The translations under genes and the position numbers were made by a program. A model generated the notes under the pieces. It was not told the DNA's origin, made no database searches, and saw only the letters and a list, made by a program, of their open reading frames with translations. A stretch of DNA of 64,000 bases from contig CAIYSZ010000028.1 of assembly GCA_903928965.1 (NCBI GenBank), positions 2,837 to 66,836 on the forward strand, in the 5' to 3' direction. Within the stretch, counting starts at the first letter, position 1, and every line of letters begins with the position of its first letter. This stretch comes from an uncultured Pseudomonadota bacterium. Lineage in GTDB: Bacteria > Pseudomonadota > Gammaproteobacteria > Methylococcales > Methylomonadaceae. Below, in pieces: positions 30,802 to 45,578 of this stretch.

Positions 30802-30817
30802 AGCAATAGTTATGCCA
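30802..30817 (-). promoter_or_regulatory. Sigma-54 -24/-12 promoter for the exbB...tpsB operon
   Basis: Minus strand TGGCATAACTATTGCT. Confidence 0.8.
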
Positions 30818-30952: not shown

Positions 30953-33900
30953 CTAACCGCCGCAACCTTTTTTGTTCTCCTTGATGTCGCTGACGCTGCA
31001 ACCGCCGAAGCTCAACAAGTCCATGCTGAGCAGGGTGACGGGGTTTTTGCTTTGCGCGTCGGAGGCGCTATTGCCGGTGTTGTCCGTGCTGCTGGTTTGG
31101 GTTGCGGTTTTCGCGGCGGAGGCGGCGGCGCTATCCGCGCCGCTGACCGTGGGCACGACGACGGCGGCGGGCACGCCGACGGTGGCGCCGCTGGCCGAGA
31201 TGTTGCTGGCCCCGACCACGGCCGTGGCGGCGATGATGATATTGTTGCCGGAGATGCCGGCCTCGCCGGCGTTGACCACGCCCACCGGCGCGGCCAGATA
31301 CACGTTGCCGCCGCCGATGGCTTGAATGCCGCTGCCGGAAATGACCGGCGGATAAGTGATCAGGATTTGGCCGGCGGGGGTGACGCTGGCGACCGGGGCC
31401 GGGGCGGAGACTGCGCTTTTGGCGCCCTTGCCGGCGTCGATGCTGCCCGCGGACGACCAAGCGGTGATGTCGCCGCCGCCCAAAGTGAATACCCTGGATT
31501 GGTTGACGTTAAGATCGTTGTTCGTCAGGACGTTGACGTTGCCGGTGGTTTCAGCCACGATGCCGAGATCGCTGGCGCCTTTGATGACGCCGGCCAAGGC
31601 GCCGGCCAGGCCGACGTTGATGGAGCCGCCGGGAGTGAGTAGATTGATGTCGCCGCCGGATTCGGTTTTGATTTGGCTGAATACCAGGTCTATGTCGCCG
31701 CTGTATTTGGTTTTGGCCGGGAACAGGGCGTGTATGGCCTGGTAGCCGATTTGGTATAGGTCATAGCGTTTGTTTTGCGGCGCGGCGGCGGCGAGGGAGG
31801 CCGAGCGGGAGATTTCCTTGAACAATACTTGCAGGAATTTGTAGATTTGCGCGCGCTGTTGGTCGCTGCTCAAGCCGCTTAGGCCTTGCAGTTCCGGATA
31901 TTGGCTTTGGTATTTAGCGATGAAATTATTGAAATCCAGCGCGCTGCCGGTTCCGCCCGCGCCAGCCAGTACTTGGATGCTGGCCCCGGTTGCGCTCAGC
32001 GCCGGGTTGTTCAGATTGGCCACGGTTTGAATGCCGACGGAGCCGCCCAGGTTGATATTGCCGCCGGCGATGACTTGCAATTGGCCGGGGCCGGCCAGGG
32101 TAATGGCTTCGTTATTTTCTAAAATCACGCCGTTGGCGTTGATGGGCGTGTCGTAGCTGATGGAGCCGCCGGCTTGAATCAAGGTCACGTCGCTGGCGTT
32201 CAGGTTTTGCCCTTGCAGACTGAAATTGGTGATGTTTCCACCGGCGATGACGTCGCCGGCTTCCGGCAGCCACAGGGTGAATTCCGCCGAGGCCGGAAAG
32301 CTCAGATTTCCATGCAAGGCATCAATCAACGGGGTCTGATTTGAGCAGGCTTGAGTTTGTAAGGCGCAGTCATGCACTGGGATGAGGGCGTGCATGGATG
32401 CCTGATTGCCGTTTGAGTTAGGGTCTAGCAGTTCCCTAGTCAAATAGGATTTGGAAGATATGTCTCCGTCCAGGGATGGGGCTGGATCCGCCACGCCGGG
32501 CAGCAGGCTGGGGTCTGCGTCGGACATGGATATGTCGATGGATGAGGTTCCGGCGGCCAAGTTCAAACCAATAGTGTTGTAGGCCAATAATTGTAAATTC
32601 CCTTGCGGGGATGGATACAAAATCATGGACTTGTCAATGCGAATGTCGCCGCTTATGGCGGCGGCGCTGACCGCGCCGGGATAAATGTCGTATTCCACGC
32701 CGGATTCGTTGAGCAGCGGCAGGTTATCCAGGGCGGCAATCGTGGCTCCGTTATTCAGGAATTGCACGTTGCCGGCGGTGGAAAGCAAATTCACCGCGCT
32801 GTTCGCCGTGTAGGTAAAAAAGCGGGCATCATTATTTTTTTGGCCGTAGTCGGGCAAGGTGGCTTGGCTGAATAGCGTGGGGTTCATCACGCTGGACACA
32901 TCGATGTCTTGCCGCGCTTGCAGGTTAAACGTTCCATCGCCCAAATCCAGGGTTACGCCCACGGTTTGGCTGTTTCCGGCAACGGTGGCGCTGTAGCTGT
33001 TGATGGCTTCGCCGGCCTGCAAATCGCCGGTTCCGGCGGCGACGTAAAATTCGCCGCCGGTGATGTTTTGGCCAGCGGTGATATTTAGATTGCCGCCGCC
33101 GTTGACGACAGTGCCGTTACTGCTCCAAGCCGCGTTCGCATTCGCGTTCGCCAGCGCGGTCAATACGCCCATCGGCTTGCCGGTGGCGGGTATCATCACG
33201 CTCAAGGTATTCACGCTGCCGCCGGCTTGGATGCTGACGTTGCCGCCGCCCAAGGCGCCGACGTTTTGGTTGAAGTTGCGATTGTCCTTGCCGAAAACGG
33301 TGTCGCCGTTGGGCAAGGTGTTGTTGCTGGCGCTGTTGAACATATCGCCGCTGATGTTAATGCCCCAGGCGGTGGGTTCCGAATTAGCGCTGTTAGCGGT
33401 TCCGTTGTCCCAGCCGCTGGTGCGCACCAGCCAATCGGTCATCGCTTGGCCGGATTGCACGCCTTGGATATCGCCGCCGGCGGCGAGGGTGATATTCCCG
33501 CCGTTGGTCGGGTATTCGGCATAGAAGAGATTAGTCAAGCCGAACTGGGTGGGATCCAAGAGGCCGTAACGCAGCAATTGGCTGAGTTTAGTTTGATCCA
33601 GGCCGGCGATATAGTCTTGCAGGCTTTGGTTGGCCGGTTGCGGCGGCATGCCGGGCACGTTGCCCGCGATCAGGTCGTTAATAGTGTATTGCGCGGTAGT
33701 CCCCACCGTATAAATGGCGGAGGCGTTATTGGAGGTATCGCTGTTGTTGAGATTTTTATTGAAGACGATGTTATTGCCCGCGTTAACGTCGATAGCGCCG
33801 GTTCCGGTGCGTACCACCACTTGCGCGGTGACGGTTTGGCCGCTGCCCAATGGGTCTAGGGTTTGGTAGTCGGCGGCTAGGTTGACGTTGCCGCCAGCGT

Positions 33901-36900
33901 TCAAATTGTAGTTCCATGAAAAGCCGGCTTGGATCACGTCCTGAAAGAGGCTGGTTTGATCCAGGGTCAGAGTATTGCCGTCGGTCGAGGCGGGGAGGAT
34001 GTCGTCGGTTGGAATTGGAGTGGTGGCGAGGGCGTCGCTGATGCTGGCGTTGATGTTAAGGTCGCCGGCGGCGCTGAGCGTCAAAAAGCCGGCCACGTCG
34101 CCGTCGCCGTCGCCGTAGCGCCAGCCGGAATTCCAGCTAAAGGTGTTGCTGTTCCAGCCGCTGCCGCCGGATTCAAAATCCCAGGCGTCCTTAAGCGTCA
34201 AATCGCCGTCGCTGCGGACTTCCACGCCCGGACTCAAGATCAAGCCGGCGGGCAGGGTCAGCGCCGCGCCATTGGCGTCAATATAGCCGGCGGCGTTCAT
34301 GAAGTTGGCGGTATCGGTTTGCCATTGCGTGATGTTGGCGGCGGTGATGATGTTGGCGTTAACCGTATTGGCGTTGATGTCGTTATAGATGCGCGTCGCC
34401 TCCAGGGCGTCGCCGCCGGCGCGCGCGCCTATGATTTGCGTGTTGAAACCTACGGCGTTGATTTGGTCGTTGGCGTCCTTGCGGCCGGTGCGCAGATGCG
34501 CCAGGCCGCCCTCGCCGGTTCCTGAAGCGGAGACGTTGATGGTCCCGCCGGCCAGATTCAGCACCCCGCTGCCGCTGCTGTTTTTATATACGGTGTCCAA
34601 GGTGACCGAGCCGCCATTATTATTACCGGATAGCGCGTTGGCCAAAATGCTGGAGCCGGCGGCTAGGGTGATGCCGGTTTCGCCGTCCAGCGTGACGCTG
34701 CCGGCACTAGCGCCGCCGGCGTTGATTTCACCGGCCAGGATCACCGCGCCTTGGTCGGCGGCGATTTGCACTTGCTGGGCGGTAAGCGTGGTTCCGGTAT
34801 TGATTTGCACGTCGCCGGCGGTTTGCTCCAGGCTGATTTGTCGGGTAAAGCCGGCGGCGGCGATTTTTTGGTCCAAGGCCGCGACATCACCCAGATTGGC
34901 GGCGGTCAGTTGCAGCGCGCCGCCGGTGACGCCGGAGGCCAGGCTAGTGGAGCCGCCGCTCGCGTTTATACTGCCGTCCCACACGAATTGGCCGGCCGGC
35001 GCTTGCACGCTCAGAGTGCCGGCATTGCTGACTTCTTGCTTGTTCAGCACCGCGCCGTTTAATTCGACGTTGACGCCGCCGGCCAGGGTGACGTCGCCTT
35101 GGGCGGCGGAGAGGCTGAGTTTGCCGGCCGGGGCGGCTTTATACGTCGTACTGGTGTAGTTAACGATGCGGCCGGACAAATCCACGCCGCCGCCTTGTAA
35201 ATTGATGGGGCCGTTGCCGGTGGCCAGGCTTAGATTGCCGGCCGGCAGATTGAATTGCGCGGTTCCGCTGATACTGCCGCCGCTGATGCTCCAACTAGCC
35301 CCAATGCCGGGGGTGGCGGCCGCGGTTGCGCCGCTGGCGGCCAGCGTCACGTCGTAGTTTCCGGCGTTGATGCTGGTGGTCGCGCCGGCCCCGCCGATCA
35401 GTTGCGCGGCGGTCAGGGTTAGATTGCCGGCGACGCTCAGCGCGCCGGGGCTGGCGGTGACGGTGTCGCCGGAGGCGTTCTGACTGGAGCCTTGGCCGCC
35501 GATGGCGTCCTTGGCTTCTAAGTTGACTTGGCTAAAACCGGTGATGGCGTATTGTCCCGCGCCCAGGGTGATGTCGTTGGCGTTTAAGTTCAGAGAACCG
35601 CCGCCGGTTCCGGCGTGGGCGGAAACCGCGCCGCCGCTATTGCTCAAGGTAATGCCGGTGGTGGTTCCGCTGACGCCCAGGCTGACGTTGAGTCCGGCGT
35701 TGGCGAAACCGTTGATGGCGGCGGCGGAGATTTCGATGGTTTTGCTGTTGACGGAGGCCGCGCCGTAAAGGTCTAAATCGCCGCGGCTGTTAAGCGAGAT
35801 GTCGGACAGTTTTTCCGGCAGCGCGGACAATACCAGGCCCGGCGTGCCAGCCGGCGCGTCGCCGAGGCTGATGCGGTTGGCGGTCAGCGCCAAGGAACCG
35901 CCATCCATTTGAATGGAGCCGTCGAACACGGTGTTCAGACTGGAATCCAGCAGCATTGATTGGCTGGCGTTCAGCGCCGCGCCGGCCGCGACGTTCAGCG
36001 TTCCTTCCGCGCCGGCGATGGCCGCGCCGCGAACGATAGTGTCCTGGCCGCCGTTGGACAGGCGCAGGATGGCGCCGTCGCCGTTGCCGAGATTATTGCT
36101 CAAGGTCAAGGTTTCGCCGGCTACTTTGTTGGCGCTATGGGTGTCGATTTCGGCGTTGGCGGCTATATTGACTTGGTTGACGGCGGTGAACAAAATTTCA
36201 TTGCCGGTCAAGGCTTGCGCGCCGTTGACGTCGCTAGCCACCGTGACCGTATTGGCGGTAATGGTGATGGCGTTGCCGTTGCGCTTGCCGCCCAATAACA
36301 GGCTGGGGGCGTTTAATTTAGTTAATTGTCCGGCCACCAGGCCGACCACGCCGGAGCCGAGAGCGCTTAAGTCGCTATTTGAACCCACCACGGTCAGATT
36401 ATTGCCGCTGATGTTGACTTGGCCGCCTAGGCCCACCAGGCCGCCGAAACTGGCCGGATTCGCCAGCAGCGCGGCGTTCAAGTTGAGGCCGGCGGCGGCG
36501 GCGAGTGTCAAGCCGCCGGCGTCCCGCGGCAGTTGCGCGCCGGATTGGCTAAAGAATTGATCGGCCAGATAAGCGGTGAATTGCGATGGGCTGGCGCTGT
36601 TGGTATTGCTGGTGATGACGCCGGCGGCGGATTCCGAGAGGGAGCCGGTGAACAAAGAGCCGGGCTGTACTTCAAAACCTTGGGTTAGGGAATTGGCGGC
36701 GGCGGTTCCGGCGACGCCGTAGCGGCCGGCTTCTATGGTATAGCCGGACGCGGTTTCGGTATTTTGCAGCAGGCCGCTGGTTCCGGCGACCGGGGTGACT
36801 AGAAACGCGCCGGGCAATAGCGCGTAATGCGCCGGCAACAGTGTATACCAACCGGCGGCCAGTCCCGCGCCGCCGTCCAGGTAGACGCTTTCGCCCATGC

Positions 36901-39900
36901 CGAGGCTGTTTAGGCCCGAATTGGCGTATTGCGTGGGATCGTAAGGGGTTAAAATATTGTCCACGCCGGGAAGTATGGCGTAGGAAGTGGCGCTGTTCAA
37001 CGCGTCGCTACTGCCGCCGTTGCCGGGTATGAATTCATAGGCGTACAATTCGCCGCCGCCGTTTAGATCAATGGTGGCGTTGGTTTGCAAGTCTATGCCT
37101 TGCCCGCTGAGCGAAAGACTTTTCTGCGGCAAGTTGGCGGCGGTAATGACGATATTGTTGCTGCCCGATAAAGGATATAGCCATTGGCTGCCGCCTTCGC
37201 CGACGCCGAACGGGACCACCGCGCCCAGGCCGGAAACCGAGGTAACGCTACCGGCGGTCAATTGCAAGTTTTGCGCGGCGTTCAAGTTAAGAGAGCCGAA
37301 CGGGGCGTCGAGCACGCCGCCCTGAATAATGTTCCTGGCGTTAATCGTAACGCCCCCCCCGGCCGACAACGGGGTTTGCGTATTGTCCTGGCCCGTGGTT
37401 TGCAGGGTCACGGAACCGGAGACGTTGAAGGTGTAATTGGTCAGGGTGGCGGGATAGATGCGTTCTGCGCCAATGACCAAATCGCCGGCTAGATTCAGTT
37501 CGCCGAGGAAATTTTTATTGCTGGTGTTGGAATCACCTAGCATGCGTACATCGCCCCGGCTTTGCAGATCGACCTGATCGAAACCGTTGAAAGCGACGCC
37601 GCCCAATAAATCCACGCCTTGGGCCGCTACCGTGAATTGAGCGTTTCCGGCGACGGCTTTGTTGGCTAGTAAGTAGTTGTTGGCGGCGATATTGACTTTA
37701 CTGGAGCCGAGTTCGACATAGGCCGCGGTAAGCGTTACCGAGGCGGCGGCGGACCCGGCCTCAATGCTCGGGCTGTCGAGGATGATTTGGCGTTCCGCGG
37801 CGAGCGAGACGTCGCCATTGAATTGAACGGCGCCGGTCAGAGCGCCATTATAGGCTTGCGCATCTGTTTTCAGGCTGATGGAGCCGAAGCCGGCGGCGTT
37901 GATGGCGTCGGCGCCGAGAAAACCTTTGTCGGCGTCGGCCACTGGCGCGTTGGCGCCTTCGACCAGTTGCACGGCGGGCGCGCCAGCGCTAATTTCCAAA
38001 AGGCTGAAGAGTTGCGGATTCAGTTGATCAGGAAATACTCCGCCTGCAATCTGGGGCGATGGTTCATTTAGCAGGGAGCGATCCAAGATTACCGACAAGG
38101 TTCCGCCCAAGGTATTGGGGCTACTGGCGGCGGCTTTGAATGCACCGCCGGCGATGATGCCCTGGCCGGATGCTAGATTGATAGAGCCGCCGTTGCCGGC
38201 GACCAGGGTGGAGGTATAGCCAACATTGCCATTGGCCCCGGTTTGTAATTGATCCAGATTGGCTGAGCGGGCGGAGACGTCGATCAGCGAGCCGGATTCG
38301 GCGACAATGTAACCGCGGTTGGCGGTCAGATTGACTGTGCCGCCATCCTTGACCACGCCGCTGGTCAAGCCGTTGATTTTGGGTTGGTCAATGACCGCGC
38401 CCGGCGCGAGAAGTTGGCTTGCGCCGCCGAGCCAGATGCCTTGATTGGCGAAATAGCCTAAATCGTTATTCGCCACATTGATAGTCAGCGAGATGTTTCC
38501 GGCCGGGGCGCTGATGACGCCGTCCGCGTAAATTGAGGTGTCGGAGCTCAGGCTGACCTTGCCGCCGGGTTCGACGCCGATGAAACTGCCGGCGCCCAAG
38601 ATTAGGGATTGCGCGCGGTTTTGGGTTTGGGTTTCGGCGAAGCCAAGGCTAAGATTGACCGGATTGCGCGTGTCGGCTGTTAAGAGCACGGGTTGGCTAA
38701 TGGCGCGCAAGTTGGCGCCGCTGGCTGTCTGTTGCGAATCCGCGTTCAGTTGTAAATTCTGTTGCAGCAGATTGAATTGGGCGTTTTTCTCAACCGTTAA
38801 ACCGTAGTTATTGGAGGTCAAGCTATAACTGGCAAACCCGCTTTGTTGAAAAAACGCGTCGGTGAATATCAAAGGCGCGGCTGATTGGGCGTTATTGACT
38901 TGGGCCAGATTGTCGGCGAGGATGATTTCGGCGGAGTTAACACTGAGTGAGCCGTCTTGTTGCAGGCCCCAGGCGCTGAGAGAGCCGTTTAATATAACGT
39001 TGGCATAAGCGGCGGTTAGGCTGATGGCGCCAGCGGAGCCGTCGCTTATCGCGCCGCTGGCTTGCAGCCAGGCCCCTGCGTCGGCGCTGATGCGGCTGCC
39101 CGGGGCCAAGGTCAAGTTTCCTTGTTCCGTCTTCAGTGTGACCTTGCCGCCGTTGATATTGATAAGGCCCGGAGTTTGGTTGTTTTGCAGCGCCAGCCAA
39201 TCATTGACCCAGTGTCCGCTGACGCTAATCAGCGCGGTTTTGCCCAGTGTGGTGGCGTCGTTGTTGAGTTCGACCGTGCCGGAGGGATTGATGATTTGAC
39301 CATTGATGTCGGTATTGCTCGCGTTGATTTGCAAGTCACCCGCTCCCGGCAGCCGCAATACGCTGTTCTGAGTTTGGGTGAAGGGGGCGTTATTAGTACT
39401 GATGATGATGTTTTGCAAGCCGGAGTTACTGAGCATGGCGCTGTTCAAATTCAACGCCACCGGTTGGCCGGCTGTGCCGGCGGCGGGGAATGCCTGATTT
39501 TCGGCAATTGACAAGCCGCTATTGCCGTTGCCGAGCACCACGGCTTGATCGCTGGATAGGTTGCCATAGTCCAATTTGATGGTCAGCTCGCCGCCGGCGG
39601 CGCGGTCAGAGGCGGTGCGTTGGTAAGCGCCGTTTTCTGCTTGGCCGTGGATGCTTGCGTCCAGCAGCGCGTTGTAACTCGAAATACTGACCGCGCCGGC
39701 GGCAAAGCCCTGGATGTAGCTTGGGCTGAAACTGGTTTGATTGACCAGCGCGGTATAAACCAAATTGGGGCTGGCCGTGCCTAGGTTATACAGTTGGCCG
39801 TTGGATTGCAAATAGGTGGTGGAGATATCCGCGCCTTGGTAGGCGATGGAGCCGCCGGAAACGTCCAGAATCGAGCCGGCGGCGGCGATGACGTCGCCGG

Positions 39901-41551
39901 TGGAAGTCAGATTAATGTTGCCGCCGGCGGTGCTGCGCGCCTCGACATCGTTTTTCAGCGCTTGCACCGGATAGCTAATGTCGGCGATGGGTACGCTAGC
40001 GATTAAGTCGCCGGAGGAATCCGTGGTGATGGTGGCGTCGCGGATGTCCACGCTGACGGTTTTGCCGTACAGCACGCCGGTGCGTTGGGTGGGCGAGTCG
40101 CGCAATTCGTTGGATTGCAATTTGACCTGTACTATGTTGTTCCGCACCGATGCAATCACGTTTTTGACGCCGGATACGTCGATTTTGGCGCCGTTCGCTA
40201 GGTAGACGCGGGCGTCGCCTCTTTGCGTGGGTGAAGCCGGGTTGTCTTGAGCGTTGACGTTGACGATGCCGGAGTGGGCTTGCACGAGGGCGCCGCTTTC
40301 GATGTTAATCTGATGGCCGTCCAGCTCAATGTCGGATTTCGGTTGGCTTTGCACGGCCAAGGCTAGACCGGAGGAGTTGTCCAGAGTGACTCCAGTAAAA
40401 CTGCCGGAGCGCAAATTTAGGGTGGCGCTTTGTCCTAGGGTGTCGCCGTAATCCGTGCTTCGCGTGGTGGCGGCTCCTTCCAGCAGGCCGTTGGTATTGG
40501 TAGGATTTTGCAGGCCTTCTTGTGCTTGCAACCTTACCTGACCGGCCAATTGGGTGGAGGTGCTGGCGGAAACGATGCCGTCTTGATTAACGGCGAAGCC
40601 TATCATGCTGATGTTGCCGCTTTTGGCGTAAACGGCGCCGGAATTATTGATTTGACCGCCGACGCCGACTTCAACCAGCAAGCCGCGCACCGAGGAGTCG
40701 GTGCTGTCTTGCAAATACACTTTGTCCTTGGCCGCCGCCAGAATCACTTGGCCGGCATTGGCGGTAATGGCGCCTTGATTATTGATGCTGGAGGCGGCGA
40801 GCAAAATGATGCCGCCGTTGGCGTTGGTTTGTATATTGGCGTCCTTTGCCACGCTAATGGGCGCAAGGCTGATCTCAATTTTATGGCCGCTGGCATCTAG
40901 AATATAATTGCCGTCTTTGTCTTGCAGGTATTGGCCCGATGCGCTGACCAAGGCCGCACCTTGGCTAATGACGGTTCCAGGGCTGGCTTGATAGGCGGCG
41001 TTAAATACGTTGCCGATGCCGGTTTGCAATGCACTTTGGCTGATGCCAAGGGTGGTGGCCACCAAGGTGTTGACGTTGACGCTGGAGCCGGGTTCAAAGA
41101 TAAAGCCGTCTTGGTTGACTAGATACACCTGGCCGTTGGCGTGTAAGGTTCCGAAAATCGTGCTGGCGTTGGCGTCGCCGATATCGTTGAGTACGATGGA
41201 GGCAGTGGAGGTTTGGTGGAAATCGACAGTATAGCCCTTGCCGATGTCGAAACTGTGCCAATTAATGATGGCGTTGTTGCCAGGGTCGATGTTGAGGGTA
41301 TGACCGTTTAAAATTTCGCTGGCGGAGCCGGATAGAGTAGGCAGGGTAAGGGTTTGGCCGGGAGACAGGGTAGGGTCCAGCAGTTGGTGGGTGGTGGGGT
41401 TTTCACCTATGGGCAGCGCCGGGTTCGCGGCGGCGGGACTAAGACCAAAGCCGAAAGCCATGCTGCCGGCGATAATGCCGCGAATGGCGCGGGTTAACGG
41501 TTTTGGATGCGGGTTGAATGGCGCGCGGGGGGATGATGCGGACGTGGTCAT
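30953..41551 (-). CDS. Filamentous haemagglutinin family exoprotein (TpsA), 3532 aa, with C-terminal DUF3739-type domain
   Basis: Signal peptide; TPS domain (IINWHSFDIG...IFGTLHANGQVYLVNQDG); G/A/S/N-rich beta-helix repeats; C-terminal NQSRVFTLGGGDITAWSSAGSIDAGKGAKS. Confidence 0.92.
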   Translation of the reverse strand: MTTSASSPRAPFNPHPKPLTRAIRGIIAGSMAFGFGLSPAAANPALPIGENPTTHQLLDPTLSPGQTLTLPTLSGSASEILNGHTLNIDPGNNAIINWHSFDIGKGYTVDFHQTSTASIVLNDIGDANASTIFGTLHANGQVYLVNQDGFIFEPGSSVNVNTLVATTLGISQSALQTGIGNVFNAAYQASPGTVISQGAALVSASGQYLQDKDGNYILDASGHKIEISLAPISVAKDANIQTNANGGIILLAASSINNQGAITANAGQVILAAAKDKVYLQDSTDSSVRGLLVEVGVGGQINNSGAVYAKSGNISMIGFAVNQDGIVSASTSTQLAGQVRLQAQEGLQNPTNTNGLLEGAATTRSTDYGDTLGQSATLNLRSGSFTGVTLDNSSGLALAVQSQPKSDIELDGHQINIESGALVQAHSGIVNVNAQDNPASPTQRGDARVYLANGAKIDVSGVKNVIASVRNNIVQVKLQSNELRDSPTQRTGVLYGKTVSVDIRDATITTDSSGDLIASVPIADISYPVQALKNDVEARSTAGGNINLTSTGDVIAAAGSILDVSGGSIAYQGADISTTYLQSNGQLYNLGTASPNLVYTALVNQTSFSPSYIQGFAAGAVSISSYNALLDASIHGQAENGAYQRTASDRAAGGELTIKLDYGNLSSDQAVVLGNGNSGLSIAENQAFPAAGTAGQPVALNLNSAMLSNSGLQNIIISTNNAPFTQTQNSVLRLPGAGDLQINASNTDINGQIINPSGTVELNNDATTLGKTALISVSGHWVNDWLALQNNQTPGLININGGKVTLKTEQGNLTLAPGSRISADAGAWLQASGAISDGSAGAISLTAAYANVILNGSLSAWGLQQDGSLSVNSAEIILADNLAQVNNAQSAAPLIFTDAFFQQSGFASYSLTSNNYGLTVEKNAQFNLLQQNLQLNADSQQTASGANLRAISQPVLLTADTRNPVNLSLGFAETQTQNRAQSLILGAGSFIGVEPGGKVSLSSDTSIYADGVISAPAGNISLTINVANNDLGYFANQGIWLGGASQLLAPGAVIDQPKINGLTSGVVKDGGTVNLTANRGYIVAESGSLIDVSARSANLDQLQTGANGNVGYTSTLVAGNGGSINLASGQGIIAGGAFKAAASSPNTLGGTLSVILDRSLLNEPSPQIAGGVFPDQLNPQLFSLLEISAGAPAVQLVEGANAPVADADKGFLGADAINAAGFGSISLKTDAQAYNGALTGAVQFNGDVSLAAERQIILDSPSIEAGSAAASVTLTAAYVELGSSKVNIAANNYLLANKAVAGNAQFTVAAQGVDLLGGVAFNGFDQVDLQSRGDVRMLGDSNTSNKNFLGELNLAGDLVIGAERIYPATLTNYTFNVSGSVTLQTTGQDNTQTPLSAGGGVTINARNIIQGGVLDAPFGSLNLNAAQNLQLTAGSVTSVSGLGAVVPFGVGEGGSQWLYPLSGSNNIVITAANLPQKSLSLSGQGIDLQTNATIDLNGGGELYAYEFIPGNGGSSDALNSATSYAILPGVDNILTPYDPTQYANSGLNSLGMGESVYLDGGAGLAAGWYTLLPAHYALLPGAFLVTPVAGTSGLLQNTETASGYTIEAGRYGVAGTAAANSLTQGFEVQPGSLFTGSLSESAAGVITSNTNSASPSQFTAYLADQFFSQSGAQLPRDAGGLTLAAAAGLNLNAALLANPASFGGLVGLGGQVNISGNNLTVVGSNSDLSALGSGVVGLVAGQLTKLNAPSLLLGGKRNGNAITITANTVTVASDVNGAQALTGNEILFTAVNQVNIAANAEIDTHSANKVAGETLTLSNNLGNGDGAILRLSNGGQDTIVRGAAIAGAEGTLNVAAGAALNASQSMLLDSSLNTVFDGSIQMDGGSLALTANRISLGDAPAGTPGLVLSALPEKLSDISLNSRGDLDLYGAASVNSKTIEISAAAINGFANAGLNVSLGVSGTTTGITLSNSGGAVSAHAGTGGGSLNLNANDITLGAGQYAITGFSQVNLEAKDAIGGQGSSQNASGDTVTASPGALSVAGNLTLTAAQLIGGAGATTSINAGNYDVTLAASGATAAATPGIGASWSISGGSISGTAQFNLPAGNLSLATGNGPINLQGGGVDLSGRIVNYTSTTYKAAPAGKLSLSAAQGDVTLAGGVNVELNGAVLNKQEVSNAGTLSVQAPAGQFVWDGSINASGGSTSLASGVTGGALQLTAANLGDVAALDQKIAAAGFTRQISLEQTAGDVQINTGTTLTAQQVQIAADQGAVILAGEINAGGASAGSVTLDGETGITLAAGSSILANALSGNNNGGSVTLDTVYKNSSGSGVLNLAGGTINVSASGTGEGGLAHLRTGRKDANDQINAVGFNTQIIGARAGGDALEATRIYNDINANTVNANIITAANITQWQTDTANFMNAAGYIDANGAALTLPAGLILSPGVEVRSDGDLTLKDAWDFESGGSGWNSNTFSWNSGWRYGDGDGDVAGFLTLSAAGDLNINASISDALATTPIPTDDILPASTDGNTLTLDQTSLFQDVIQAGFSWNYNLNAGGNVNLAADYQTLDPLGSGQTVTAQVVVRTGTGAIDVNAGNNIVFNKNLNNSDTSNNASAIYTVGTTAQYTINDLIAGNVPGMPPQPANQSLQDYIAGLDQTKLSQLLRYGLLDPTQFGLTNLFYAEYPTNGGNITLAAGGDIQGVQSGQAMTDWLVRTSGWDNGTANSANSEPTAWGINISGDMFNSASNNTLPNGDTVFGKDNRNFNQNVGALGGGNVSIQAGGSVNTLSVMIPATGKPMGVLTALANANANAAWSSNGTVVNGGGNLNITAGQNITGGEFYVAAGTGDLQAGEAINSYSATVAGNSQTVGVTLDLGDGTFNLQARQDIDVSSVMNPTLFSQATLPDYGQKNNDARFFTYTANSAVNLLSTAGNVQFLNNGATIAALDNLPLLNESGVEYDIYPGAVSAAAISGDIRIDKSMILYPSPQGNLQLLAYNTIGLNLAAGTSSIDISMSDADPSLLPGVADPAPSLDGDISSKSYLTRELLDPNSNGNQASMHALIPVHDCALQTQACSNQTPLIDALHGNLSFPASAEFTLWLPEAGDVIAGGNITNFSLQGQNLNASDVTLIQAGGSISYDTPINANGVILENNEAITLAGPGQLQVIAGGNINLGGSVGIQTVANLNNPALSATGASIQVLAGAGGTGSALDFNNFIAKYQSQYPELQGLSGLSSDQQRAQIYKFLQVLFKEISRSASLAAAAPQNKRYDLYQIGYQAIHALFPAKTKYSGDIDLVFSQIKTESGGDINLLTPGGSINVGLAGALAGVIKGASDLGIVAETTGNVNVLTNNDLNVNQSRVFTLGGGDITAWSSAGSIDAGKGAKSAVSAPAPVASVTPAGQILITYPPVISGSGIQAIGGGNVYLAAPVGVVNAGEAGISGNNIIIAATAVVGASNISASGATVGVPAAVVVPTVSGADSAAASAAKTATQTSSTDNTGNSASDAQSKNPVTLLSMDLLSFGGCSVSDIKENKKGCGG

Positions 41552-41721
41552 GGCAGAAAGTGCGTGTTGGTTTCAGGATTAAATTCAATAGGTAAAGTCA
41601 TTTAAACGCTATAGCCGTTTTAATAGTCGCATAAGCGCAATAAGTATCCGGGTGCGCATGGGTAGTGGTTGGCCAAAGGCCTTTTATGTCTCATGAACTT
41701 AAGTCATTTTGCTAAGTACTC

Positions 41722-41767
41722 AAAATAAAAAAGCGTCGGCATACCCTAGGCAGGGTAATGTCGACGC
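41722..41767 (-). terminator. Intrinsic terminator
   Basis: Minus strand GCGTCG-ACAT-TACCCT-GCCT-AGGGTA-TGC-CGACGC followed by TTTTTTATTTT. Confidence 0.8.
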
Positions 41768-41888
41768 ATTTTGTCTTTCCATTTGTCTTTCCATGTTCCT
41801 GTGCGGCCACTCCTTTGAGGTTTCCCTTTGGCCTGTTCCTGCAACATCCCTGTTTTAAGTCGTCCGTTACTTGATTTTGTCCAATGTT

Positions 41889-42092
41889 TGCGCCGTTCCG
41901 TTAAAACTCCGTTTCTGGCGTATCCTGCCACCTCCGTTGTAGGGGCCAGTCACTTGACCCTGCCGCTTACCCTGCGTGTGCGCCGTTCCGTTGAAAGTCC
42001 GTTTCTGGCGATTCCAGCCACTTCCGTTGTGGGGGCCAGTCACTTGACCCTGCCGCTTACCCTGCGTGTGCGCCGTTCCGTTGAATATCCGT
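41889..42092. repeat. 90-bp tandem repeat, about 2.3 copies
   Basis: Unit begins TGCGCCGTTCCGTT at 41889, 41979 and 42069. Confidence 0.95.
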
Positions 42093-42226
42093 ATTCGGCA
42101 ATTCCCGTCACATCCCTGATGGAGCCTGTCCTAGACTCGGTTGCTTCCTGCTTACGCCTAATGGTTTATCCTTGGCAAAGCACATCCTTGTGCGGTAATC
42201 CTTTAGTTAAACCGATTCAAACGAGA

Positions 42227-43960
42227 TTATTTCAGCTCGATGATGTCGGTTTTCACGGTTGCAACCGGTCTTACACCCAAGTGGGTGTAACCGTCCGAAC
42301 CAACATGGCTAAGTGGAACCAAGGGGTTGCTGATTTGGAATGGAATGTCCAAAGCCACGCTGCCGCCCACCGGATGCGAAGCGGTAGTGGCGAAAATGCC
42401 TGGATTGCCCCAAGGTTGCGCTACTTGTGGGTTCACGGAAGCACCTACGCGGATGCTGCCCAAGTCATTGGCAAATGTAGTCAGGAAACCTTGGATATCG
42501 CTAGACAGCGGAATGGTAGGGATGCTGCCGGTTGCACCGGTGTAACCCGCGGCGGATTGAAACACCACCTCGCCTTCGGCCCAGAATGGGTAGCTGCCGG
42601 AGGAAACGTTTTCCACGGTTGGCGCGTAGCCGTCGATTTTTACGAAACGCCAGTTAGCGCCAATAGTAGTGTTGGTGCTGGAAAGGTCGTTGGCGGTGGC
42701 GGCGTCTATGGCGATACCCCAGTATTTGGCGCTGTTTGGATTCAGCTTGCTGGTGTTGGCGCCGGTTTGCCAGTCGAACAGCAATGCGCCGGTGTTGTTA
42801 ACGCCGGTGGCGGCGACCACGGCCGGATGCTGAGTGGCGAAAACGGCTTTGGTTTGAGAAGAAGCGGCGGCCGGCGCGGTTGAGTTTTCCGCGTACGGAT
42901 AGTTCAAGAAGGTGGCGTAGGCAGCCGCGCCAACCGCGGCGCCGTTGTTACGGATACCAACCCCGATTGGCGTCAAACCACCGGTAACGGTAGGCGCGGT
43001 AACGCCAGCGGTGGAGGCGAAGGACACCAAGGTTGCGGAAGTGCCATTGCCTAGGTTGACTTCAACGTTGTTCCAGTCGCTGATTTTGCCGGCCAGGACG
43101 GAGGCGACAAAGTCACGGCTTAAGCTAGGCAGGCTGGCGGCGTTGCTGTAATCGCCGATGGTGGTGGTGGCGGGCAATTTACCGTTGGCGATTTGCGCGG
43201 CTTGCAATACTTTATACAAGTCGGTGGTTACGGCGATGCCATAGGTCAAGCCGCCGGTTGGAATGCGTGACAGCGCGGACAAATCGCTAGGCGCCGCGCT
43301 GGTGTTCCAAGGCGAGGTGTTCGCGTTGGTGCTATATTCGGTGGTTTGAGCAGGGTAGTTTCTGGATTGAGAGTTCAATACCAGGGATTCGGAGTCCACG
43401 CCCGTGAAACCGCCGTGTGAAAAATGTTGCACGATGGAAGCCAAACCGCTGGTGGTGGTGTCAATGACTTGACCCCAGGAGCCGTCGATGGTGTTTTGAG
43501 TCCAGTTGCCGTAGCTGGCGGTGTTGCCTTGGGAGGCGTTAGCGGTTGGAGTATTGAAAATATACAGTTGGTCGATGGCGGTGCCGGCCAGGACTGGAAT
43601 CACGCCATAGCCCGCGGCGCCGCGCGAACGTTTGCCAAAATAGATTTTTTTGCCTTGCAGGTTGGCCGGCAGGTTGCTGCTACCGATGAAGTAATAACCT
43701 GTGAAGTTGGAGCCCCAGCTGCCAGAGGCTTGGCTGGTGGTGGTGGCGTCGCGGAACACATCCAAAGTGCCGGTTGCCGCCAAGGTGTTTTTCACTACGT
43801 CGTCAATGGCTGAGTCTTGCGCCGCGCCGCCGGAGGCGAAAATCACGTAATCCGGGGTGGCGTAGCCGGAGGTCCAAGGGGTAATGGCGGAAGCTGAGTT
43901 AGCGCCGGCCAATAAGGCCACGGCGATACCTAGTTTATTTAAAGTGTGTGTGTGTTTCAT
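42227..43960 (-). CDS. Secreted 577-aa protein with PstS/PBP-like motifs; no Cys and no internal Met
   Basis: Signal peptide ending ASA; LSRDFVASVLAGKISDW and KIDGYAPTVENVSSGSYPFW resemble periplasmic-binding-protein motifs. Confidence 0.85.
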   Translation of the reverse strand: MKHTHTLNKLGIAVALLAGANSASAITPWTSGYATPDYVIFASGGAAQDSAIDDVVKNTLAATGTLDVFRDATTTSQASGSWGSNFTGYYFIGSSNLPANLQGKKIYFGKRSRGAAGYGVIPVLAGTAIDQLYIFNTPTANASQGNTASYGNWTQNTIDGSWGQVIDTTTSGLASIVQHFSHGGFTGVDSESLVLNSQSRNYPAQTTEYSTNANTSPWNTSAAPSDLSALSRIPTGGLTYGIAVTTDLYKVLQAAQIANGKLPATTTIGDYSNAASLPSLSRDFVASVLAGKISDWNNVEVNLGNGTSATLVSFASTAGVTAPTVTGGLTPIGVGIRNNGAAVGAAAYATFLNYPYAENSTAPAAASSQTKAVFATQHPAVVAATGVNNTGALLFDWQTGANTSKLNPNSAKYWGIAIDAATANDLSSTNTTIGANWRFVKIDGYAPTVENVSSGSYPFWAEGEVVFQSAAGYTGATGSIPTIPLSSDIQGFLTTFANDLGSIRVGASVNPQVAQPWGNPGIFATTASHPVGGSVALDIPFQISNPLVPLSHVGSDGYTHLGVRPVATVKTDIIELK

Positions 43961-44022
43961 GTTTTAAACTCCAAAATTGAATGACGGCGATTCCTTGGAA
44001 TCCTTGGAATCGCCTGGTTTTA

Positions 44023-44922
44023 TTAGGCTTTAGTGCGTGAAGATTTGCGGCTCAAGCCCAGAGCGCCGCACAAACCGGACAAGAACAACCAAACGCCGGC
44101 GGGAACCGGAACCGAGCTTGCGCCAACCGGGTTATAGGTCAAAACGTCATTAGCGTTTAGGCTGAAGGTGCCCAATTTGCTAACAATGTTGGTGTCCGCG
44201 CCGTCGCCCAGCAGACCGTTTTGGTTGGTGACGAAGTAGAACGGAACCGAGTTAGCGCCGATGGTGCCTTCATAGGGAAACAAGGCAGAGTAAGCGAACG
44301 CGCCAGTGCCAGCCGCCGGAGCCAATACTTCGTTGCTGACGGCGTTCAACTTGGTCAAGCTGACGTTGGTCGCCGAAATGGCGCCGCCCACGGAGTCGGT
44401 GTTGACCGAAGCTTGTTCGTTTAAGCCGGCCCAACCGGCTAAGTTACCAGACCAAACGGCGGTGCTTTGCTCGGTGGCAACCACGCCCCAAGGCGCTACC
44501 GCGGTTAAAGGATAGCCGCCGGCGACATCATTCAGGTTGGTCAAAGTGTTTTGATCCAATACTGAAGCGCCGACCACGGACCAACTCAAGTGCGCGAGGT
44601 CGCCAGCAATGCTGTTGAAGTCAGCATAGTTGCTCAAGTTCCAGCTCAAGGTGGAGCTTGTGCCTTGGGTGCCGTTGACGAAGCTGGAGTAAGTCAAGCC
44701 GCTGTGGTCCAGGGACAAATCCAACAGAAAGGTTTTACCAAAGTTGGCGGAACCATTTAACTGGTCGTTAACCGCCAACAAGATGGAAGAACCCGCGCCA
44801 TTGTTGATTGGGGTTTGTTGCGACGAATCCGATGGATCGTAAGTCAGGGTTAACGCCGCGTTGGCGCTGCCCGCGACTAACGCCAGCGCAATCGCCGCGG
44901 ATAGCTTGTGAATATTTTTCAT
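44023..44922 (-). CDS. Secreted protein with VPxPA/PEP-CTERM-like C-terminal sorting signal
   Basis: Signal peptide ending ANA; C-terminus VPVPAGVWLFLSGLCGALGLSRKSSRTKA. Confidence 0.88.
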   Translation of the reverse strand: MKNIHKLSAAIALALVAGSANAALTLTYDPSDSSQQTPINNGAGSSILLAVNDQLNGSANFGKTFLLDLSLDHSGLTYSSFVNGTQGTSSTLSWNLSNYADFNSIAGDLAHLSWSVVGASVLDQNTLTNLNDVAGGYPLTAVAPWGVVATEQSTAVWSGNLAGWAGLNEQASVNTDSVGGAISATNVSLTKLNAVSNEVLAPAAGTGAFAYSALFPYEGTIGANSVPFYFVTNQNGLLGDGADTNIVSKLGTFSLNANDVLTYNPVGASSVPVPAGVWLFLSGLCGALGLSRKSSRTKA

Positions 44923-44994: not shown

Positions 44995-45010
44995 GGCAAT
45001 AAATGTGCCA
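44995..45010 (-). promoter_or_regulatory. Sigma-54 promoter for the two surface-protein genes, with adjacent IHF-like site
   Basis: Minus strand TGGCACATTTATTGCC; AATCAATAATTTA (IHF consensus WATCAAN4TTR) at 45016-45028. Confidence 0.85.
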
Positions 45011-45562: not shown

Positions 45563-45578
45563 AGCAGTCTTTGTGCCA
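45563..45578 (-). promoter_or_regulatory. Sigma-54 promoter for the oscA-like gene
   Basis: Minus strand TGGCACAAAGACTGCT; degenerate UAS TGCTGATT-AGG-TGTTGAATTTTGGTCA at 45650-45676. Confidence 0.8.

Follow-up and report, generated by a model that had tools for sequence, protein, structure and literature searches.

What is the role of the long GGA-rich stretch of non-coding DNA that directly follows the gene of a 577-aa secreted protein in a Methylomonas genome? The window analysed here is a stretch of 64,000 nucleotides from a 3.25-Mb Methylomonas assembly, the genus mates of which include M. aurea SURF-1 and M. subterranea SURF-2, and the element in question occupies 505 bases on its minus strand (41722..42226). 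A first-pass annotation, made from the letters alone, had called it a likely CsrB/RsmZ-type sponge for the RNA-binding regulator CsrA, encoded as the 3' untranslated region (3'UTR) or a processed product of a sigma-54 surface-protein transcript. We describe it as a candidate CsrA-binding 3'UTR or small RNA (sRNA). The reading that we prefer, and to which we give about an even chance, is that of a CsrA-titrating RNA at the 3' end of a sigma-54-driven operon for sulfur-poor proteins, similar in kind to RsmW and RsmU. A CsrA sponge of this kind has not yet been described in methane-oxidising bacteria: our full-text searches on methanotrophs gave mentions of csrA expression in transcriptomics and no description of a Csr/Rsm sponge RNA.

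GGA content and motif context

The element carries 26 GGA motifs on the minus strand and one on the plus strand, as first counted, and this is the highest count for any 505-nt minus-strand segment of the 64-kb window (mean 5.9, standard deviation 3.1). The original expectation of about seven motifs, however, ignored base composition. The element is rich in A (31%) and G (29%), and shuffles of its own bases yield 13.7 ± 2.9 GGAs, leaving an approximately twofold excess (z about 3.9). After this control GGA ranks second among the over-represented trimers, behind TTT, which comes from U-runs. The ANGGA context tells more than the bare GGA excess: ANGGA is found 18 times against 4.3 ± 2.0 expected, CA(N)GGA nine times against 1.9 and CA(N)GGA[AU]G four times against 0.3, and not one of 2000 shuffles reaches any of these counts. 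An A stands at position -2 of the GGA in 69% of the element's sites, and in 60% of those in the CsrB-like RNA of the same genome that is described below. Gaps from one GGA to the next are mostly 10-17 nt, inside the range of 10-63 nt over which one CsrA dimer can bridge two sites (PMC7652899). CsrB itself, with about 18 CAGGA(U/A/C)G repeats, takes up about 18 CsrA subunits (PMC7652899); by site density the element appears to match it, and its GGA motifs seem to be under comparative constraint.

Tandem Repeats Finder confirmed that part of the element is a 90-bp tandem duplication (41889..42105, minus strand; period 90, 2.4 copies, 90% matches). Could the whole be a non-functional, purine-rich spacer enlarged by this recent duplication? 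The 2.4 copies supply seven of the 26 GGAs, and the fold of the element as a whole is no better than that of shuffles. Yet the enrichment holds when a single repeat copy is retained (19 GGAs against 9.4 expected), the ANGGA context is never matched in the 2000 shuffles, and a co-varying stem as well as locus-specific covariance-model hits recur across species, as set out below. We therefore give the spacer explanation very little credence.

A coding function was considered and rejected. The open reading frames (ORFs) that overlap the element, one of 351 aa on the plus strand and two of about 60 aa on the minus strand, have no Pfam match, and the 351-aa ORF is antisense to the 577-aa gene; it remains open because TCC-rich sequence has no stop codons. 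A BLAST search with the element, run on its own genome and on 40 relatives, found only the element itself, which is thus neither a dispersed repeat nor alignable. Two metagenome pattern scans with the conserved words of the repeat gave 0 and 23 hits, all 23 of them chance matches to unrelated sequence, and an Rfam scan of the whole window at gathering thresholds returned a tRNA only.

Boundaries and transcription signals

The first base of the element is the first base 3' of the TAA stop codon of the 577-aa gene, and its end is formed by an intrinsic terminator (41722..41767, minus strand) with a stem at 41767-41733 followed by UUUUUUAUUUU (dG -20.7 kcal/mol, z -5.1); the first-pass annotation had placed both correctly. 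It had also seen no convincing promoter, and we agree: there is no sigma-70-like promoter in 41400-44300, no sigma-54 site nearer to the element than 45010-44996, and no GacA/UvrY box (TGTAAG-N6-CTTACA) upstream of the element. Matches to that box with up to three mismatches number 7 against 12.5 in shuffles; one match, with three mismatches, falls inside the element (41854-41871). Because it has no promoter of its own, the element is read most simply as the 3'UTR of the sigma-54 operon, an origin that had been suggested from the outset and that its position fits. The layout is that of known 3'UTR sponges, directly after the coding sequence, promoterless and with one terminator shared with the mRNA.

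CsrA and a CsrB-like RNA in the same genome

The genome has csrA in one copy (G000:C20:23120-23275; PF02599 at 91.5 bits), and we take its product to be near-identical to E. coli CsrA over the RNA-binding part. The protein is canonical and retains L4 and R44, both of them critical to the binding of RNA (PMC7652899).

A genome-wide scan of GGA density uncovered a second locus, ORF-free and about 700 nt long (G000:C114:14199-14919, plus strand; L034:1000-1720 in our locus set), with 47 GGAs and a terminator at its end. Many of these GGAs sit in hairpins of the GGGCU-GGA-AGCCC type. We predicted GGA accessibility by local folding, compared it with that of shuffles and used this CsrB-like locus as the positive control: its GGAs are unpaired with a mean probability of 0.53, compared with 0.31 over all positions, a value for the GGAs that 2% of shuffles reach. 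The locus has no Rfam family match, was not found by BLAST in 44 genus mates and has no GacA box upstream. That neither Rfam nor BLAST in genus mates finds it shows the speed at which such RNAs drift. To judge by its sequence and predicted folding, this locus is likely the canonical CsrB-type sponge of the genome, and it is a better candidate for a classical CsrB than the element at 41722-42226.

Elsewhere in the genome, G000:C92:24-307 (minus strand) is a non-coding, GGA-rich 9-nt microsatellite of GAUUGGGGU, GAUUGGGAG and GAUUGCGGG units with a terminator behind it, and has the look of a simple repeat, not of a hairpin array.

Hairpins of the element

Each full copy of the 90-bp repeat consists of a hairpin with GGA in its loop (UGGC-NGGAxxC-GCCA), then GAAACGGAYUUU and then AACGGAACGG. 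This hairpin, which we call hairpin A, is predicted on the minus strand in repeat copy 2 (42006..42020; UGGC-UGGAAUC-GCCA, with an alternative CUGG/CCAG pairing equally possible) and in repeat copy 3 (41916..41930; UGGC-AGGAUAC-GCCA). Nearer to the stop codon, a GCAC-AAGGAU-GUGC hairpin (42180..42193, minus strand; dG -5.9 kcal/mol, z -2.1) also exposes GGA in its loop and, read from 42193 to 42180, is close to the CsrA ligand RUACARGGAUGU obtained by SELEX (PMC7652899). Hairpin C (41805..41833, minus strand) has a GGCCA/UGGCC stem, as good in 1.6% of shuffles, and a 19-nt loop, AAGGGAAACCUCAAAGGAG, with two GGAs; ACAGGAACAUGGA comes next. It is this last hairpin that forms the conserved core common to relatives.

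GGA-rich tails behind orthologous genes

Orthologues of the 577-aa protein are present in part of the genus Methylomonas (46-52% identity), in other Methylococcales and in Nitrosomonas. Every one of them ends in ...(I/V)(E/Q)LK*, which places the element outside the coding frame. Nine of the ten genus orthologues examined have a GGA-rich tail right after the stop codon: those of G046, G014, G002, G021, G053, G057, G015, the split G059 locus and the window's own genome. G001 has none. The tails hold 12-13 GGAs where there is a single short unit and 21-29 in long or two-unit versions, the second unit following a terminator-like hairpin in G046, G015, G057 and G059. Their DNA cannot be aligned by BLAST across relatives. 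Weaker GGA tails also stand behind the gene in a few other Methylococcaceae (L040, L070, L036 and L080).

The csrA gene is present in all 13 Methylococcales genomes tested, while three Nitrosomonas genomes have the orthologue and neither csrA nor a GGA tail. These betaproteobacterial orthologues (G061-G063; loci L071-L073) are 38-42% identical to the 577-aa protein and lie beside a TpsB gene, so that the gene family evidently crosses class boundaries together with two-partner-secretion genes.

Shared hairpin modules and covariation

Two modules are common to the tails. In module 1 a short hairpin presents (U/A)GGA in the loop, RAAA-NGGAYUUU comes after it, and the 90-bp repeat of the window is a multiplied module 1, that is, hairpin A. 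Its stem differs from lineage to lineage (CCCAC/GUGGG, GGGCG/CGCCC, CGACGC/GCGUCG, GUCAA/UUGAC and UGGC/GCCA). RNAalifold returned no consensus for this module because loop lengths differ, and we judged hairpin A by shuffle tests on each sequence instead, with frequencies of 0.004-0.08. The word GAAACGGAYUUU-N4-GGAACGGC is common to the window's element and M. aurea.

Module 2, which is hairpin C, stands just before the terminator, with a stem of 4-6 bp and a loop of 13-19 nt that starts with AAGGGA and ends with GGAG and is followed by ACAGGAUAAGGA. We aligned 11 sites with MAFFT on sequence only, and RNAalifold itself predicted the hairpin C stem on this alignment. The 4-bp stem is paired in all 44 cells, with double changes in each of its four pairs; the covariation score of 0.80 compares with 0.35 ± 0.07 in shuffles (0/500 as high) and at most 0.22 in slid-partner controls, although these figures are inflated because the sites had been chosen as hairpins upstream of an anchor motif. 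The invariant columns are the two loop GGAs and the downstream AGGA. A variable stem around a fixed loop motif is the pattern that would be expected of protein-binding loops.

From module 2 we built two covariance models, R1 with the window's copy and R2 without it. In a search of 45 Methylomonas genomes the R1 hits with E <1e-3 fall at one locus per genome, in each case right behind the orthologue, and five of these sites lie outside the training set (a pair in G059, one in G021, the first unit of G015 and the second unit of G046). The window's own copy (41784-41837) scores 33.5 bits with R1. Among 201 genomes of the order, module 2 is hit in four of 52 genera. There is also an orphan copy in G047, a genome without the 577-aa gene, where about 250 nt of GGA-rich sequence, with a terminator of their own, hold the motif between a tatB-like gene and an efflux-pump gene. 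The orphan is at about 2270-2700 of L110 (G047:C1:1982500-1986500), and a long inverted repeat of CACGAAA words precedes it.

The orphan must have its own promoter, which raises the question of whether the window's element might likewise be an independent sRNA gene, still a CsrA sponge but no 3'UTR, with a promoter that escaped recognition within the end of the 577-aa gene or immediately behind it. The second units that follow a terminator-like hairpin in G046, G015, G057 and G059 would fit such an arrangement. However, the region 41400-44300 has neither a sigma-70- nor a sigma-54-like site, there is no GacA box, and the element begins at the stop codon in every orthologous locus. We regard an independent gene at this locus as very improbable.

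Arguments against CsrA binding

Several observations weigh against the reading of the element as a CsrA-titrating RNA. The comparison with Csr/Rsm models that had been proposed as a check came out negative: an Rfam search of 41000-43000 with cmscan found no Csr/Rsm family at E<=10. The strict CsrB repeat CAGGA(U/A/C)G occurs just once, and nine sites read ACGGA. The whole-element fold is no more stable than shuffles (z -0.2). The GGAs have a mean unpaired probability of 0.35 against 0.31 for all positions, and 32% of shuffles are as high; hairpins A and C do carry loop GGAs, but thermodynamic prediction alone would not put the GGAs of the element at large into loops. The match of the window's copy to the model that was built without it amounts to 15 bits, the top hit in a 2-kb neighbourhood with E about 0.001, and across the window's own genome R2 finds nothing at E<=1. 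Because this match is only local, membership rests partly on position and synteny, and on the word that the element has in common with M. aurea; the copy would be a divergent member of the Methylomonadaceae GGA-tail RNA that R1 defines. Finally, many csrA-positive relatives with the gene have no tail, and the correlation between csrA and tail is therefore one-way only.

Some of these points would suit a conserved structured RNA that presents its GGA loops for another purpose, be it a different RNA-binding protein, pairing with UCC targets, or stability or localisation of the transcript. The missing Rfam match, the many sites that read ACGGA or GGAG instead of the CsrB repeat and an accessibility no higher than in shuffles all agree with that. 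So does the conserved hairpin loop, which at 13-19 nt with two GGAs is unusually large: high-affinity CsrA/RsmE sites are usually hexaloops, and added loop nucleotides reduce affinity (PMC7652899). On the other hand, A at -2 with an invariant GGA is the signature of CsrA/RsmE contacts, several sites are near the CsrA consensus (ACAAGGAUGUG, UCAGGGAUGUG and ACAGGGAUGUU), and the Nitrosomonas genomes that have the gene and lack csrA have no tail. We think a role apart from CsrA rather unlikely.

What survives of the CsrB/RsmZ label, then, is the class and not the family. Motif form, density and terminator fit a multi-site CsrA-binding RNA, but there is no Rfam match and no GacA/UvrY box. As far as sequence can tell, the element lies outside the CsrB/RsmZ families and appears to be a fast-evolving, lineage-restricted, CsrA-sponge-like RNA of a known class.

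The operon and its neighbours

The sigma-54 and surface-protein context of the first-pass annotation held up, with a perfect promoter, sulfur-poor proteins and an OscA-like neighbour. The promoter, TGGCACatttaTTGC (44996..45010, minus strand), is an exact TGGCAC-N5-TTGC, lies 74 nt upstream of the first gene and is presumed to be the start of the element-bearing transcript. That gene (44023..44922, minus strand) is an ORF for a 299-aa secreted protein with a VPLPA/PEP-CTERM-like C-terminal anchor and a weak TIGR03370 match; it has one Cys, in the anchor, and one Met. After a 62-nt spacer comes the 577-aa gene (42227..43960, minus strand), an ORF for a secreted protein with no Pfam or NCBIfam match, so that its family is unassigned; it has no Cys, and its sole Met is the initiator. 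Of the orthologous operons, only one, at a Methylocucumis locus, showed an exact sigma-54 consensus upstream in the right orientation; the matches in M. aurea and M. subterranea lie on the other strand. Just upstream of the operon is an OscA-like sulfur-starvation gene (71-aa) with a sigma-54-like promoter. Because this gene adjoins the operon and the proteins are sulfur-poor, we treat the link to sulfur as plausible context and not as a result.

Within the spacer an intercistronic hairpin (43986..44014, minus strand; 9-bp stem, loop AAGGAUUCCAA, dG -17.3 kcal/mol, z -5.6) has a loop that contains AAGGA, and it lies 25 nt upstream of the GGAG Shine-Dalgarno sequence of the 577-aa gene. This is a putative CsrA target site, and by analogy with glgC such a layout might let CsrA repress the 577-aa gene. 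In G046, the hairpin at the equivalent position has a loop without GGA.

Downstream, the terminator and about 175 nt stand between the element and a 3532-aa TpsA / filamentous-haemagglutinin-type gene (30953..41551, minus strand; Pfam TPS and DUF3739). The tail is present with or without tpsA as the next gene, which counts against reading it as a leader of tpsA. We ruled out a role as the 5' leader of tpsA on account of the terminator and of the tails in G021 and G053, where tpsA is absent.

These features bear on a further explanation, namely that the tail binds CsrA in cis only, without a noticeable change in the global CsrA pool. We consider this unlikely. It could proceed by several routes: through the stability of the operon mRNA, through translation of the 577-aa gene by way of the AAGGA-loop hairpin and the Shine-Dalgarno sequence, or through read-through into tpsA. 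CsrA is known to act on mRNA stability and transcript elongation (PMC7652899), the 577-aa gene has the glgC-like combination of a hairpin-loop GGA with a GGAG Shine-Dalgarno sequence, the tail is usually linked to the 577-aa gene family, and the paralogous operon described below has a GGA cluster in its 5' region. However, 26 sites are far above the number in known cis-regulatory CsrA targets, and their density equals that of CsrB; the strong terminator separates tail from tpsA; G021 and G053 have the tail with a downstream gene other than tpsA; and the G047 orphan has no such gene nearby.

The paralogous operon, on G000:C36, pairs a 249-aa PEP-CTERM-like gene with a paralogue of the 577-aa gene that is 571 aa long; a TpsB gene comes next. 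The 5' region of this operon (G000:C36:30528-30770, minus strand) contains a cluster of about 9-11 GGAs (AUGGAUCAGGGAGUAAACAGGGAGCAGGGAUGAAAAGGAUAGGGAG...), and there is no such richness in GGA at its 3' end. The window has two more sigma-54-like -24/-12 sites, with one mismatch each and both on the minus strand: 45564-45578, upstream of the OscA-like 71-aa gene, and 30803-30817, upstream of a 606-aa ExbB/TolQ-like gene.

A proposed mechanism and its significance

Returning to CsrA titration, the reading that we prefer, we infer that the sigma-54 promoter drives transcription, that CsrA binds and is titrated, that the RNA may be processed and that sulfur starvation is the trigger. The element would be the non-coding part at the 3' end of the operon of two genes (299-aa and 577-aa), closed by its own intrinsic terminator, and would display some 26 CsrA-type sites in short hairpin loops and single-stranded linkers. 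Upon induction of the operon the tail would bind several CsrA dimers, either on the mRNA itself or after release as a stable, terminator-protected fragment, and free CsrA would fall. In this role the tail would be a second sponge, specific to certain conditions, that works alongside the large CsrB-like RNA of the genome.

A broader proposal is possible but speculative, and we lean against it. A modular GGA cassette carried on a sulfur-starvation-type sigma-54 operon could be a nutrient-specific sponge that feeds sulfur status into the methanotroph Csr network. Hairpin modules, quickly gained and lost, would adjust the capacity of this cassette; the 90-bp array in the window and the two-unit versions in other species would be examples. 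The cassette could occur as a free-standing sRNA as well (G047).

If the titration reading is right, the element and the CsrB-like RNA on C114 together would be the first map of the RNA side of the Csr system in Methylococcales, a group that matters for methane mitigation and bioconversion. The element would also be the third independent CsrA sponge borne on a 3'UTR and tied to a nutrient signal (iron for RsmW, here possibly sulfur). With its pair of fixed GGAs, the small co-varying hairpin is a candidate for definition as a new Rfam family, and it indicates how such RNAs may evolve by module duplication while their primary sequence drifts past detection by BLAST.

Comparison with known systems

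CsrB and CsrC of E. coli and RsmX/Y/Z of Pseudomonas (RF00018 and relatives) resemble the element in having about 20 GGA sites, one per 17-20 nt, in an ANGGA context, and in their modular repeats and intrinsic terminator; the presumed partner is a near-identical CsrA. They are, however, free-standing genes with GacA/UvrY-dependent promoters, and their GGAs are clearly in hairpin loops (PMC7652899), while the element has no promoter, GacA box or model match and a predicted GGA accessibility at the level of shuffles.

RsmW of Pseudomonas aeruginosa is cut by RNase E from the 3'UTR of pa4570 and responds to iron (PMC4950607; PMC13622538). Like the element it is a multi-GGA RNA directly behind a protein-coding gene; it is made from the 3'UTR, binds RsmA/CsrA, is induced by iron limitation and works beside the main sponges RsmY and RsmZ. 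The element has about twice the length of RsmW, many more GGAs and a 90-bp array, follows a sigma-54 operon and is without sequence or Rfam similarity to RsmW. Processing, RNase E dependence and binding are established features of RsmW alone.

RsmU of Xanthomonas campestris sequesters RsmA and is released by processing from a comEA-like mRNA, which encodes a periplasmic protein and holds RsmU in its 3'UTR (PMC7694677). It shares with the element a lineage-restricted distribution and a sequence unrelated to the classical families. RsmU is, however, more than 90% conserved in its genus, whereas the element is fast-evolving and BLAST-silent in 40 relatives, with a short hairpin core as the shared part.

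The Salmonella fim leader is an mRNA leader that titrates CsrA. The Campylobacter flaA mRNA is likewise a protein-coding transcript that doubles as a competitor for CsrA binding (PMC4894983), as we propose for the element. Both of these, though, offer a few sites in a 5' leader, and the element offers many in a 3' tail.

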